A stretch of 41,869 nucleotides of DNA. Source: a virus (lineage: Duplodnaviria > Heunggongvirae > Uroviricota > Caudoviricetes). The stretch lies in the IMG/VR virus record IMGVR_UViG_2531839449_000046; one strand, given 5' to 3'. Shown piece after piece: positions 12,001 to 18,000 of the stretch. Made by a program: the position numbers. Position 1 is the first letter of the stretch. Every line of letters begins with the position of its first letter.

Positions 12001-15000
12001 CAAATTGCCGCCCACTGTGAGTCATATTCATCCTGACTTTCCAGAACCATACGAATCGCCCGCTGACGGACTTCGGGGGAAAAACGAGTATTTTTAGTCA
12101 TCCTGTTTACCTCTTTCTCAGGGAGTTTAGTCTCCAGGATTTCCGGGGCGGTTCATCATCATGGTATAGCGGCGTATTGCTCCCATCTTCCTGATGACGT
12201 TGACATTGATGAAATGGAAAGGGAGATGAAGCAATGACCATCTACATCACTGAGTTAATAACAGGCCTGCTGTAATCGCAGGCCTTTTTATTTGGGGGAG
12301 AGGGAAGTGAACGATAGCTACCGACAGTTTGAAAACTGGTGGTCAAAAGACAAAAGCCAGTTCACGGGAGACGATGAATTAAAAGAGTTTGCCTGGGTGA
12401 TATGGCAGGCATCGCGCTCTGCTATTGAACTGGATATCGACTGGCCCGAATCGAATGACGACCTTTGGAAAGATGGTGAAGAAGGTGCTTATGCGATGGG
12501 TTATGAGGATGGGCGTGACAAAACGGTAATTGCAGTAATGAAAGCCATCAGGGCCGCAGGAATCAAAGAAAAGAATTTCGATTAAGCAAATATCATTTCA
12601 ATAAATCGCTTTTAAGGCATCACAATCGCTCTGTGGTGAGGTAAGCACGTGCAAGGTATACCGATAAGCAGCGAGAATGAAAAATGCGTCAGAATGCGTT
12701 TGAGGAGGTTTTAAGAAATGAGTACGATAGCTGAGCTTGTCAGGGCTAATTTTCGTGAAGAGTTGGTGCGTTGGTATCGGTATCGTTCATCGTCCAGTTT
12801 GCCGCTTGATGAGTTGTATGAGCATTCACCTGCCGCACGACGCTATCCGCGTGACCGTGTTCTTCGACGGTTGTTCAAACTCAACAATGAGTTTCAGCGC
12901 AACAGAATTATCCGGAGTCTGGATTTTAAGTGAAGGAGTGAGCATGAGCGACCTATCATTAACCCAGCCAAAGCTAAAAGAATGTCCGTTTTGCGGCGGT
13001 AATGCTCGTCTGTGGGTTGAGGCCGGAATAAATATTGATGTGTGGGGCTATGCAGAATGTGACCTCTGTGAAGCCAGGGTGGCATGGGCACCATCAGTTG
13101 CTGCGGCTACTGAAAAATGGAACCGGAGAGCAGGAGATGAAGCAAACCTTTCTGCTTCGCAACGAAGCAATCAGAAATAACGCCATAGACGCCATTCTCT
13201 CACTACCCATCGACGACAAGTCACCCCACGAAGTCCACGTTAAAGAACCCAAGCGCAGCAAAGCGCAGAATGACCGCATGTGGCCGATGCTGAACGATGT
13301 TTCGCGTCAGGTTCTATGGCATGGTCAACGGCTGGCGCCGGAAGACTGGAAAGACCTGTTCACTGCCCTGTGGCTTAAGACCAAAAAACTGGAGCAAAGA
13401 AGTGCGCCTGGTATCGACGGTGGCGTTGTCATGCTTGGCGTGCGTACCAGCAAAATGCGAAAGGCCAGCATGACTGAGCTTATCGAAATCATGTTCTGGT
13501 TCGGCTCAGAGCGCAACGTGCGGTGGAGTGATGACTCCCGGCGAGAGTATGAATGGTCACAACGAAAAGGGAAGGCTGCATGACTATCAAATCAAATACG
13601 CCAGCACACGACAAGGACTGCTGGCAAACGCCGCTCTGGCTTTTTGATGCGCTGGATATTGAGTTTGGATTCTGGCTGGATTCAGCTGCGAGCGACAAAA
13701 ACGCTCTGTGCGCTCACTGGCTAACTGAGGCTGACGACGCGCTAAATTCTGAGTGGATAAGCCACGGTGCAATCTGGAATAACCCACCGTACAGCAATAT
13801 CAGGCCGTGGGTGGAAAAAGCCGCTGAGCAGTGCATACAACAGCGACAGACGGTAGTTATGCTTGTGCCAGAGGATATGTCAGTCGGATGGTTCAGCAAG
13901 GCTCTGGAGAGTGTCGACGAAGTTCGCATTATCACTGATGGACGGATTAATTTTATCGAACCATCGACAGGGCTGGAGAAGAAGGGAAACAGTAAAGGCT
14001 CCATGCTGCTGATTTGGCGACCGTTCATCAGTCCTCGACGGATGTTTACTACCGTATCCAAAGCGGCATTGATGGCGATCGGGCGGGGCGTCAGGAGGGC
14101 GGCATGAGACGACAGCGACGAAGTATCACCGACATCATCTGCGAAAACTGCAAATACCTTCCAACGAAGCGATCCAGAAATAAACGCAAGCCAATCCCAA
14201 AAGAATCTGACGTAAAAACCTTCAACTACACGGCTCACCTGTGGGATATCCGGTGGCTAAGACATCGTGCGAGGAATACAAGGTGATTGACCCAAATCGA
14301 AGTTACGAACAAGAAAGCGTCGAGCGAGCTTTAACGTGCGCTAACTGCGGTCAGAAGCTGCATGTGCTGGAAGTTCACGTGTGCTCCGATTGCTGCGCAG
14401 AACTGATGAGCGATCCGAATAGCTCAATGTACGAGGAAGAAGACGATGGCTAAACCAGCGCGAAGACGATGTAACCGTAAAAGAGAAGATTTAACTGTTA
14501 AAAGGATATTTGAGTTACTAAGTTTCGATAAATCTACCGGGGTATTTAGATGGAAAGTTCCCACTCAGGGAAGGATAGCATTAAATAGTGTTGCTGGAAC
14601 TTTTGATTCCAACGGTTATTCAATGATCATGATAGATGGGCGTAGATATAAAACTCACGTCTTAGTTTTTTACATAACTCATAATCGTTGGCCTGCTGGT
14701 CAAATTGACCACGTTAATGGAATTAGGACCGACAATAGGCCAGAAAATTTAAGAGAATGCCTGCCAATAGAAAATTCAAGAAATATAAGGATCCGAAAGA
14801 ATAGCAAATCAGGTTGCAGAGGGGTTACTTGGCACAAACGACAGAAAAAATGGAATGTTAGGCTAGGATTCCATGGCAAGAGTAAACACTTCGGATGCTT
14901 TGATGATCTGGAGTTAGCGGTACTAGTTGCTGAAGAAGCCCGAGATAAGTATTACGGTGATTTTTCCGGCAACGAAAGGAGCACTTATGCGAATCTATCG

Positions 15001-18000
15001 AAGGAAATGTAAATGTTGCAATGAATGGTTTATACCAAAATATCAAAATCAATATTGGTGTAATGAGATTTGTGGAACCAAGATAGCACTCGAACGACGA
15101 AGCAAAGAACGCGAAAAAGCGGAAAAAGCAGCAGAGAAGAAACGACGACGAGAGGAGCAGAAACAGAAAGATAAACTTAAGATTCGAAAACTCGCCTTAA
15201 AGCCCCGCAGTTACTGGATTAAACAAGCCCAACAAGCCGTAAACGCCTTCATCAGAGAAAGAGACCGCGACTTACCATGTATCTCGTGCGGAACGCTCAC
15301 GTCTGCTCAGTGGGATGCCGGACATTACCGGACAACTGCTGCGGCACCTCAACTCCGATTTGATGAACGCAATATTCACAAGCAATGCGTGGTGTGCAAC
15401 CAGCACAAAAGCGGAAATCTCGTTCCGTATCGCGTCGAACTGATTAACCGCATCGGGCAGGAAGCAGTAGACGAAATCGAATCAAACCATAGCCGCCATC
15501 GCTGGACTGTCGAAGAGTGCAAGGCGATCAAGGCAGAGTACCAACAGAAACTCAAAGACCTGCGAAATAGCAGAAGTGAGGCCGCATGACGTTCTCAGTA
15601 AAAACCATTCCAGACATGCTCGTTGAAGCATACGGAAACCAGACAGAAGTAGCACGCAGACTGAAATGTAGTCGCGGTACGGTCAGAAAATACGTTGATG
15701 ATAAAGACGGGAAAATGCACGCCATCGTCAACGACGTTCTCATGGTTCATCGCGGATGGAGTGAAAGAGATGCGCTATTACGAAAAAATTGATGGCAGCA
15801 AATACCGAAATATTTGGGTAGTTGGCGATCTGCACGGATGCTACACGAACCTGATGAAAAAACTGGAGACGATAGGATTCGACACCAAAAAAGACCTGCT
15901 TATCTCGGTGGGCGATTTGGTTGATCGCGGTACAGAGAACGTCGAATGTCTGGAATTAATCACATTCCCCTGGTTCAGAGCTGTACGTGGAAACCATGAG
16001 CAAATGATGATTGATGGCTTATCAGAGCGTGGAAACGTCAATCACTGGCTGCTTAATGGCGGTGGCTGGTTCTTTAATCTCGATTACGACAAAGAAATTC
16101 TGGCTAAAGCTCTTGCCCATAAAGCAGAAGAACTTCCGTTAATCATCGAACTGGTGAGCAAAGATAAAAAATATGTTATCTGCCACGCCGATTATCCCTT
16201 TGACGAATACGAGTTTGGAAAGCCAGTTGATCATCAGCAGGTAATCTGGAACCGCAAACGAATCAGCAACTCACAAGACGGGATCGTGAAAGAAATTAAA
16301 GGCGCGGACACGTTCATCTTTGGTCATACGCCAGCAGTGAAACCACTCAAATTTGCCAACCAGATGTATATCGATACCGGCGCAGTGTTCTGCGGAAATC
16401 TCACATTGATTCAGGTACAGGGAGAAGGCGCGTGGGCATAAGAGAACTAAACCTCACCAAAGAACAGCATGAGTGGCTGAATGGCTGGCTTGAACTGTGG
16501 GGCGCATGGGTTTATTCAGGTCGTCTGGAAAAGCGTATGAGCAGCGTAATAGCGAAGTTCATGGAGAGCGTAGAGCCGGGAAGAGTTATGACAAGGCCAA
16601 TGTGTAATGATGATGATGGAATGTTGATTTCTCAGGTCGTCGATTCCGTCATGTACATTGACAAGAGAGCCTTTGGCATCCTCCTCAGCTACTACGCTCA
16701 TGGTTCATCTAAGCGAGCAATTGCATCCTACTATCACGCGACTGCAAAGCCACGCAAGATGTGTGGGCGTAGTGGCGAGGGATGGAGAAAACCTTCAATG
16801 GCAACCTGTAGAAACGAAATTGACGACATCCTGAAAGCGTCGTTATTTGTTTTGTACCAGCCAATGCAAAATGCTTTCAAAATGCGTAAACGTGTTGAGA
16901 AAGTTAAGCATGTTGCTGTTAAAAGCCTTGACATGCAATTATCCATTTAGCCATAATTAGAAGGTAAGCTGCCGTTAGTGACTCTTAAGTTGCAACGGTG
17001 GCTTTTTTTATTTGGGTCAGTCGTATAAAGGTCATTACGGAAGGCTGTTAACCTTCTTATCGTGGTTCGAGTCCACGCTGTCCCGCCAAATATGCTGGTT
17101 TAGCTCCAATGGTAGAGCAGTCGCCTTGTAAGCGAATGGGTAGCGGTTCAAGTCCGTTAACCAGCACCATAACTGAGCCGTAGCCACTGGCTATCCTGAA
17201 CTCATCAGTGATAGTTACGCTGCGGCCTTCTACACATGATCTTCGTGAAAGCGGGTGGCAGGAGGCTGCGCTAACAACCTCCTGCCGTTTTGCCCGTGCA
17301 TATCGGTCACGAACAAATCTGATTACTAAACACAGTAGCCTGGATTTGTTCTATCAGTAATCGACCTTATTCCTAATTAAATAGAGCAAATCCCCTTATT
17401 GGGGGTAAGACATGAAGATGCCAGAAAAACATGACCTGTTAGCCGCCATTCTCGCGGCAAAGGAACAAGGCATCGGGGCAATCCTTGCGTTTGCAATGGC
17501 GTACCTTCGCGGCAGATATAATGGCGGTGCGTTTACAAAAACAGTAATCGACGCAACGATGTGCGCCATTATCGCCTGGTTCATTCGTGACCTTCTCGAC
17601 TTCGCCGGACTAAGTAGCAATCTCGCTTATATAACGAGCGTGTTCATCGGCTACATCGGTACTGACTCGATTGGTTCGCTTATCAAACGCTTCGCTGCTA
17701 AAAAAGCCGGAGTAGAAGATGGTGGAAATCAATAATCAACGTAAGGCGTTCCTCGATATGCTGGCGTGGTCGGAGGGAACTGATAACGGACGTCAGAAAA
17801 CCAGAAATCATGGTTATGACGTCATTGTAGGCGGAGAGCTATTTACCGATTACTCCGATCACCCTCGCAAACTGGTCACGCTAAACCCAAAACTCAAATC
17901 AACAGCCGCTGGACGTTACCAGCTTCTTTCCCGTTGGTGGGATGTCTACCGTAATCAGCTTGGCCTGAAAGACTTCTCTCCAAAAAGCCAGGACGCTGTT

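Follow-up and report, generated by a model that had tools for sequence, protein, structure and literature searches.

A putative mobile HNH-AP2 endonuclease gene that has taken over the start of ninG in lambdoid prophages of Escherichia coli

The nin operon of a mosaic P22-like/lambdoid prophage of Escherichia coli (IMG/VR record IMGVR_UViG_2531839449_000046; the whole analysed stretch of 41,869 nucleotides is referred to below as the window) contains an open reading frame (ORF) for an HNH endonuclease with an AP2-type domain, which begins on the first codons of the recombination gene ninG, also called rap. The ninG gene itself starts again downstream, at an internal ATG and with a replaced N-terminus. 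The features of the locus are the following.

14475..15070, plus strand: the insert proper, 596 bp with a G+C content (GC) of 37.6%, not in lambda-type ninG, of which it replaces 64 bp (lambda codons 10–31)
14446..14474, plus strand: ninG-derived 5' end (codons 1–9, MAKPARRRC, and 2 nt), now the start of the HNH ORF, identical to lambda ninG at 29 of 29 nt
14446..15012, plus strand: HNH_3 and AP2 endonuclease ORF, 188 amino acids (aa) (Pfam HNH_3, PHROG 99, AlphaFold2/Foldseek)
14707..14787, plus strand: HNH catalytic core, D88-H89 ... N101-L102-R103 ... N110 ... N113 (alignment A2)
14812..14958, plus strand: AP2-type DNA-binding domain, residues 123–171 (sub-threshold Pfam AP2 match; three strands and a helix in the model)
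14461..14474 and 14999..15012, plus strand: imperfect 14-nt direct repeat (11/14), CGAAGACGATGTAA and CGAAGGAAATGTAA, both copies corresponding to ninG codons 6–10 (alignments A4, A5)
14975..14981, plus strand: new Shine-Dalgarno sequence AAAGGAG, read from the sequence, inside the 3' end of the HNH ORF and 5 nt before the ATG at 14987
14987..15070, plus strand: replacement NinG N-terminus, 28 codons, GC 28.6%, overlapping the HNH ORF by 26 nt (alignments A3, A4, A5)
14987..15589, plus strand: restarted ninG (rap), 200 aa (Pfam NinG, 2.7e-85, 285.5 bits), with a lambda-type body from 15071
14241..14453, plus strand: ninF (Pfam NinF, 1e-13), in the same arrangement as in lambda

The edges of the insert are precise. 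Identity with lambda covers ninF and the first 29 nt of ninG, ends after 14474 (alignment A1) and resumes at 15071 (TGTGGAACCAAG..., also given as TGTGGAACCAAGATAGC...), both flanks being about 98% identical to lambda, and in an insert-free E. coli prophage (L165) the BLAST breakpoints fall exactly on 14474 and 15071. The net gain over lambda (locus L001) is 532 bp, in agreement with the spans of the lambda match (1401 versus 869 bp). The insert is AT-rich in both of its parts, with a GC of 39.1% in the HNH part against 50–52% in the flanks, and lies within the lowest 3.8% of 596-bp windows when the whole window is scanned. It is not the product of chance or artefact, because the same 596 bp recur at 99% identity or more in 538 of 5,426 complete E. 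coli genomes, always on the chromosome and in one to three copies. Three other stretches of the window match it in AT-richness (a GC of 40% or less in 596-bp windows), at 4790–6099, 28727–29987 and 39553–41869; the lowest value, 29.9% near 41173, overlaps a reverse-strand ORF of 302 aa (40803–41711) beside the probable tailspike, and these stretches may represent further foreign or accessory genes.

The first 29 nt of the HNH ORF, ATGGCTAAACCAGCGCGAAGACGATGTAA, are the same as the start of lambda ninG (A1) and occur in all insert-bearing loci, whichever left context they have. Within the HNH frame the ATG at 14446 is the sole start before codon 60, there being no ATG, GTG or TTG at codons 2–59. 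Just upstream, the last codons of ninF hold a ribosome-binding stretch, GAGGAAGAAGACG (14433–14445), which is ordinarily used by ninG but here by the HNH ORF; the same ATG overlaps the ninF stop codon, as it does in lambda. Because no other usable in-frame start exists, the nuclease can be made only from ninG's ribosome-binding site and ATG; on the reading of these sequences, the cassette has no start codon of its own and its product is translated from the signals of its target gene. Homologues of the protein start 3–8 residues ahead of the motif LTxxxLRxLLxYDPxTGVFRW; here 15 residues precede it, nine of them ninG's, and this borrowed tail is modelled with low confidence (mean predicted local distance difference test score, pLDDT, 65 for residues 1–10). 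The lambda ninG start consists of two tandem ATGs (annotated MMAKP..., lambda 42429–42434), of which the window, with ACGATG at 14443–14448, has the second only.

Downstream, the last 38 nt of the HNH ORF hold, in another frame, the new Shine-Dalgarno sequence and the ATG at which ninG restarts. The resulting protein is new in its first 28 codons and of lambda type from codon 29 on; it matches the Pfam NinG profile (PF05766) over its full length (profile positions 5–192 of 193), is 91% identical to lambda NinG overall (A3), with a body that is 98% lambda-like, and is annotated by the PGAP pipeline as the same 603-bp coding sequence in E. coli genomes. All four putative zinc ligands (C8, C11, C25 and C29) are kept in the replacement N-terminus. 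Across the NinG types compared, C8, C11 and C25 are invariant and position 29 is Cys or His, and the protein retains both features of the family, zinc ligands at the N-terminus and a CxxC...H...CxxC-N-H core for the nuclease. In its CX2C knuckle and in the DNA stretch CGAAGGAAATGTAAA, the new N-terminus comes closer to the 933W/SE21 type of ninG (RRKCKICKEWF) than to the lambda type (RRRCKNDECREWF). As the replacement N-terminus is complete, ninG codons 6–10 are present twice, and since the HNH stop codon (TAA) lies inside the right-hand copy of the direct repeat, the nuclease ORF both begins and ends in ninG-derived sequence. By its sequence, ninG thus stays intact at 200 aa with a rebuilt four-ligand zinc knuckle. 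A 9-bp expansion (EKA) in a repeat of ninG (at about 2170–2180 of L002, the Stx1 phage AU6Stx1 described below; about 15117 in the window) makes NinG either 200 or 203 aa long among carriers.

These comparisons bear out the architecture proposed in the first-pass annotation of the window, which had noted that the HNH ORF begins MAKPARRRC as canonical NinG does, had placed the restart of NinG, with a novel leader, at the internal ATG, and had described an AT-rich tract over both the HNH gene and the rebuilt N-terminus. The first likeness is an exact 29-nt identity, so that homology between the HNH N-terminus and NinG is present; the restart is seen behind AAAGGAG and yields the 285.5-bit NinG match; the AT-rich tract is real when the GC of its parts is set against that of the flanks; and the alignment to insert-free lambda-type ninG that had been suggested, with lambda and L165, fixes the boundaries given above.

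The 188-aa protein belongs to a family of nucleases with known relatives among homing endonucleases. It matches Pfam HNH_3 at 42.7 bits (4.2e-11; cutoff 24.8) and the PHROG 99 'HNH endonuclease' family at 1.4e-71, and its Pfam AP2 match is sub-threshold (22.2 bits; cutoff 33.3). In an alignment of 15 sequences (A2; the HNH protein and 14 homologues) D88, H89, N101, L102, R103 and N110 do not vary, and the conservation of N113 is 90% or higher. The AlphaFold2 model (pLDDT 87.8) places a strand at residues 102–105 and a helix at 107–113, consistent with a beta-beta-alpha-metal core. Its best fold match in the PDB is I-HmuI (1u3e; Foldseek E 0.012, probability 1.00, 109 columns), followed by AP2-DNA complexes: the AP2 domain of the model superposes on AtERF1 (1gcc) with a root-mean-square deviation of 1.3 A over 51 columns (probability 1.00), and WRI1 (7wq5) is also matched by Foldseek. 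A sequence search of the PDB with the protein gave a weak AP2 match alone (WRI1, E 0.19). In the classification of His-Me finger nucleases (PMC5714182), HNH_3 is grouped with the I-HmuI homing endonucleases and AP2 is named as a specificity module; NinG forms a separate His-Me finger group there. By sequence and model, then, a DNA-reading AP2 module together with an HNH core would place the protein among the HNH_3, or I-HmuI-like, homing endonucleases (His-Me finger group 2). By tblastn, 3,059 phage records hold HNH-AP2 homologues, mostly annotated as HNH or homing endonucleases. PADLOC returned no significant defence-system match, its one match being a marginal 23-residue HNH-motif similarity to ZorE (E 0.0073, 14 bits), and membership in a defence system was rejected on that account.

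Both the HNH ORF and the restarted ninG lie within the delayed-early nin operon, the order being ninB, a Dam methylase gene (13553–14107), ninE, ninF, the HNH ORF, ninG, ninH, the ninI phosphatase gene, Q, tRNA-Asn and tRNA-Thr, and no promoter-like or terminator-like site was found within the insert. Over 12500–17000 the window matches a prophage found in E. coli O111:H- 11128 and in other O111 strains at 100% identity; more broadly, its early region resembles that of many lambdoid phages with and without Shiga toxin (Stx) genes, and its late region that of phage phiv205-1. The methylase is a Dam-type N6-adenine methyltransferase within the stretch 13035–14107 (Pfam Dam, 2.1e-64), and its gene shares about 30 nt with the end of the ninB-like ORF. 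The tRNA-Asn (GTT) and tRNA-Thr (TGT) genes, at 17014–17169, directly follow the Q antiterminator gene, an arrangement common in Stx-type lambdoid phages.

The cassette is widespread, and its two parts travel together. Carrier genomes are concentrated in O157, O26, O111, O103 and O145 strains, and the cassette is also found in two Stx1 phages, AU6Stx1 and SH2026Stx1; the exact HNH protein occurs on at least 1,000 contigs, mostly of E. coli with a few of Salmonella, and the existing annotation of the pair reads 'HNH endonuclease | recombination protein NinG'. In all 538 E. coli records the HNH gene and the new N-terminus occur together. Likewise, among 56 IMG/VR contigs with the alternative N-terminus the HNH gene lies upstream in all but one, which is cut at the contig end, and about 135 sampled ninG loci are either canonical without the HNH gene or alternative with it, with no hybrids. 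An insert-free ninG with the replacement start, for which the first-pass annotation had proposed to look, was found neither in these sets nor in the phage records. The sole non-contiguous E. coli record is that of strain PK8241 (L162; NZ_CP080139.1, 670180–671393), where an element of the IS3 family of insertion sequences (IS) lies between the HNH ORF and the restarted ninG; as this insertion splits the two, the strain was rejected as a case of the HNH gene without the new N-terminus. Two apparently variant left junctions were likewise set aside as uninformative on origin, L009 having a C9R single-nucleotide polymorphism only and L056 such polymorphisms only.

Relatives of the cassette are remote. 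In a search of 5.8 billion proteins, identities to the HNH protein fall directly from 99% within its cluster to 47% or less. Among 50,697 phage records searched with blastn down to about 65–70% identity, the insert DNA was found in the two HNH-bearing Stx1 phages only, and no other NinG N-terminus in that collection exceeds 61% identity. No ancestral, non-chimeric context of the HNH gene was found, a scan of species-representative genomes giving a 39%-identical match in Planctomycetota alone, and the 40-aa alternative N-terminus, used as a query against a large protein database, returned seven short E. coli NinG fragments that were uninformative.

Variation among carriers points to an insert with a history of its own. 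Over 37 carrier loci, nucleotide diversity is 0.2–0.4% in the insert, 1.2–1.7% in the adjacent ninG body and 26–30% on the left side, where the contexts are unrelated; the steps fall exactly on both insert edges, and the cassette is 4–8 times less variable than the ninG sequence beside it. The backgrounds are diverse: 38 carriers comprise 21 ninG-body haplotypes, three of them identical to insert-free haplotypes, and several carriers are nearer in the ninG body to insert-free loci than to fellow carriers. From 15071 on, diversity is equal within carriers, within non-carriers and between the two groups, with no fixed differences. At least five contexts occur to the left: ninF in four allelic forms, and an unrelated region whose junction lies 14 nt ahead of the ATG. 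The O111:H8 strain 7-55 62A carries the cassette in two prophages (L169 at 1.77 Mb and a window-type prophage at 2.04 Mb), which are identical over 14444–15102, differ at 17 sites in the rest of ninG and have unrelated left flanks. The low diversity of the insert over at least 21 backgrounds implies that it has spread faster than the DNA around it. By these sequences the insert appears to be younger than its flanks and uncoupled from them, though ordinary recombination could contribute to this, and it behaves as a presence/absence polymorphism at one defined site in otherwise homologous genomes.

The nuclease gene, moreover, has been kept. HNH copies are intact in 55 of 56 cases, and after loci with an insertion or deletion or an IS were filtered out the variants comprise 11 synonymous and 12 non-synonymous changes, a ratio of non-synonymous to synonymous polymorphism (pN/pS) of about 0.29. 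Together with the invariant catalytic residues, these values argue that the HNH protein is still under selection. In one contig (L005; IMGVR_UViG_2526164629_000012) a 1-bp deletion in a run of six T residues, equivalent to position 14666 of the window, shifts the HNH frame, reflecting either decay or a sequencing error in a homopolymer.

We suggest, with a probability that we would put at roughly 0.65, that this is a free-standing homing-endonuclease cassette of the I-HmuI/HNH_3 class with an AP2 domain, which sits in the first ten codons of ninG and has been spreading among lambdoid prophages; cleavage and homing themselves we infer from the family, the site and the pattern of variation. During lytic growth or mixed infection, the nuclease, made together with the delayed-early nin genes, would nick or cut an insert-free lambda-type ninG, most likely near codons 9–10, at the left junction. 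Repair from a carrier copy would then transfer the whole cassette, with homology supplied on the left by ninF and the start of ninG and on the right by the conserved body of ninG. The carrier would be immune, the canonical site being split and its second copy diverged and 6 nt shorter: the carrier allele lacks the canonical 64 bp, and what corresponds to them in the new N-terminus differs in just this way. As to origin, the nuclease gene may once have lain directly upstream of a 933W-like ninG allele in an AT-rich donor, and may then have become fused, in a single illegitimate join, with codon 9 in a ninG of lambda type; every copy now seen would descend from that chimera.

Several observations weigh against this reading, and most of them favour instead a passenger, that is, an inactive or non-homing HNH gene that entered once and was then moved by ordinary lambdoid recombination and by the clonal expansion of enterohaemorrhagic E. 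coli (EHEC). Even where the HNH gene is absent, the first 90 nt of ninG form a general mosaic junction, with a module boundary inside the coding sequence. At least three classes of ninG N-terminus (the first ~30 codons), defined with loci L164 (933W), L163 (SE21) and L166 (O111:NM 14614), are each tied to an upstream gene of their own: ninF precedes the lambda type (CX4C), roi/kilAC the 933W/SE21 type (CX2C, His being its fourth ligand) and the HNH gene the alternative type. One sister O111 prophage, which occupies the same chromosomal site, differs from the window solely in having 14292–15073 swapped for ant, kilAC and a 933W-type N-terminus, with its right breakpoint at 15074. Given such a mosaic junction and such a swap, ordinary recombination could move the cassette. 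In many genomes, too, carrier and canonical copies of ninG stand side by side, unconverted; there is no gradient of reduced diversity beside the insert, and so no visible co-conversion tracts of variable length; the single chimeric left junction shared by all copies leaves independent insertions uncountable; single loci are frameshifted or changed at conserved residues (P83T, N97T, N101S); and the sample is heavy in clonal EHEC lineages. What speaks against a passenger is the intactness of 55 of the 56 ORFs, with their pN/pS and invariant catalytic residues, an insert 4–8 times less diverse than its immediate flanks on so many backgrounds, and a family that is the classic homing-endonuclease class. 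We regard a passenger as unlikely, if the most serious of the competing explanations, and the share of the spread that the nuclease itself has driven is beyond what sequence alone can tell.

A nuclease domesticated by the phage, cutting rival lambdoid phages or prophages at ninG or acting with NinG/Rap in recombination, and spread by the benefit that it brings, strikes us as improbable. It would fit a gene that shares its delayed-early operon with the recombination genes ninB and ninG, lacks signals of its own, is linked in translation to ninF and ninG and is widely retained in intact form, and recent studies (PMC13096335; bioRxiv 10.1101/2025.09.07.674715) describe phage homing endonucleases in competition and immune evasion. 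Against it, nothing at the locus indicates a function beyond the nuclease fold, the PADLOC match is marginal, and most ninG-bearing phages manage without the HNH gene (canonical ninG is present in 970 genomes); the mechanism, moreover, overlaps with homing and would be hard to separate from it by comparing sequences. A degenerate group I intron or intein carrying the HNH ORF, an idea that might be drawn from the occurrence of HNH_3 domains in both introns (I-HmuI) and inteins (PMC5714182) and from an insert within a coding sequence, is so improbable that we reject it. There is no Rfam match at E of 1 or less on either strand of 14000–15700; HNH coding sequence takes up 538 of the 596 inserted bases and the new NinG N-terminus the other 58, so that a ribozyme core would have no space; ninG is read in another frame than the HNH ORF (repeat distance 538, or 3n+1), with a stop codon between the two; and ninG has a Shine-Dalgarno sequence and ATG of its own.

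For a homing cassette, then, the evidence is the family and fold of the nuclease, a polymorphism that is precise to the base and the low diversity of the insert. The first-pass annotation had read the locus as homing-endonuclease insertion with co-conversion of the flank, and it is the second half of that proposal that needs revision, as the flank has no variable tract length. Because the replacement N-terminus is invariably linked to the HNH gene and ninG from 15071 on is in full linkage equilibrium, the N-terminus acts like a constant component of the cassette and not like a graded conversion tract; on the simplest view it is the 5' end of ninG from the donor itself.

The cassette is present in roughly a tenth of complete E. 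coli genomes and is wide in pathogenic E. coli. If active, it would be a site-specific initiator of recombination in the nin region of prophages that recombine with one another and have Shiga toxin genes nearby. The 5' end of lambda ninG is a ready candidate target for a new sequence-specific HNH nickase or cutter. One may go further and picture an active endonuclease that circulates among EHEC lambdoid prophages, Stx phages included, as a translational parasite of its target, with the surrogate zinc-knuckle N-terminus doubling as an immunity allele and with breaks that could bias recombination or inheritance of Q-stx in mixed infections; we offer this extended picture as speculation and think it rather doubtful. 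The possible bias on Q-stx is raised because Q and stx follow ninG at a distance of only about 1.5–2 kb in Stx1 phages, AU6Stx1 among them. The order in the Stx1 phages (L002, 1479–4181) is HNH, ninG, ninH, Q and stxA1, and about 1.7 kb separate the cassette from stxA1 downstream; non-Stx prophages of O157 and O26 strains have a phosphatase gene and a different Q after this cassette.

Both genes of the pair are already annotated in hundreds of genomes, and the arrangement itself was not found described: a literature search turned up no paper on an HNH insertion into ninG, a captured start codon or a substitute N-terminus. It illustrates a way for a mobile nuclease gene to invade a coding sequence with neither intron nor intein, by taking over the start and replacing the N-terminus with the zinc ligands kept.

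Homing endonucleases are well studied in lytic T-even phages, where the free-standing HNH enzymes MobA–MobE are found, and have rarely been considered in temperate lambdoid phages. As with the Mob enzymes, the cassette is an HNH nuclease gene without an intron or intein, present or absent between homologous phage genomes, placed in or beside a conserved gene of DNA metabolism and expected to spread by break repair with flanking homology, and in both cases the interrupted host gene can stay functional. It differs in that its host is a temperate lambdoid phage or prophage and not a lytic T-even phage, in that the activity of its nuclease is putative, and in that the nuclease borrows the ribosome-binding site, ATG and nine codons of ninG and has no start of its own. 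Friedrich and colleagues are said to have reported in PNAS in 2007 that mobE splits nrdA in Aeromonas phage Aeh1, giving a 'genes-in-pieces' reductase; ninG, in contrast, is not in two pieces, having a full substitute N-terminus with its own start. Homing by T4 mobE is treated in PMC2790892.

Compared with I-HmuI, the intron-encoded HNH nicking homing endonuclease of Bacillus phage SPO1, the cassette protein shares the best-matching fold, the His-Me finger group of HNH_3 and an N-terminal beta-sheet region followed by the HNH core. I-HmuI, however, is located in a group I intron and has a C-terminal helix-turn-helix, whereas the cassette protein is free-standing, carries AP2 and is 18% identical over the aligned part. 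The order of HNH_3 and then AP2 is that of the HNH-AP2 proteins which phages, cyanobacteria and ciliates possess (Magnani et al. 2004, Plant Cell; Wessler 2005; as cited in PMC5714182), of which phages hold thousands of homologues; the nearest of these outside the 99% cluster are at most 47% identical, and the start-codon fusion is specific to this cassette among homologues compared by protein only. Finally, the right edge of the insert at 15071 lies within 3 nt of the breakpoint at which N-terminus alleles are exchanged and so resembles an ordinary lambdoid mosaic boundary, but lambdoid mosaic modules come without a nuclease of a homing family, are not fused to the start codon of a neighbour and are not several-fold less diverse than both of their flanks.

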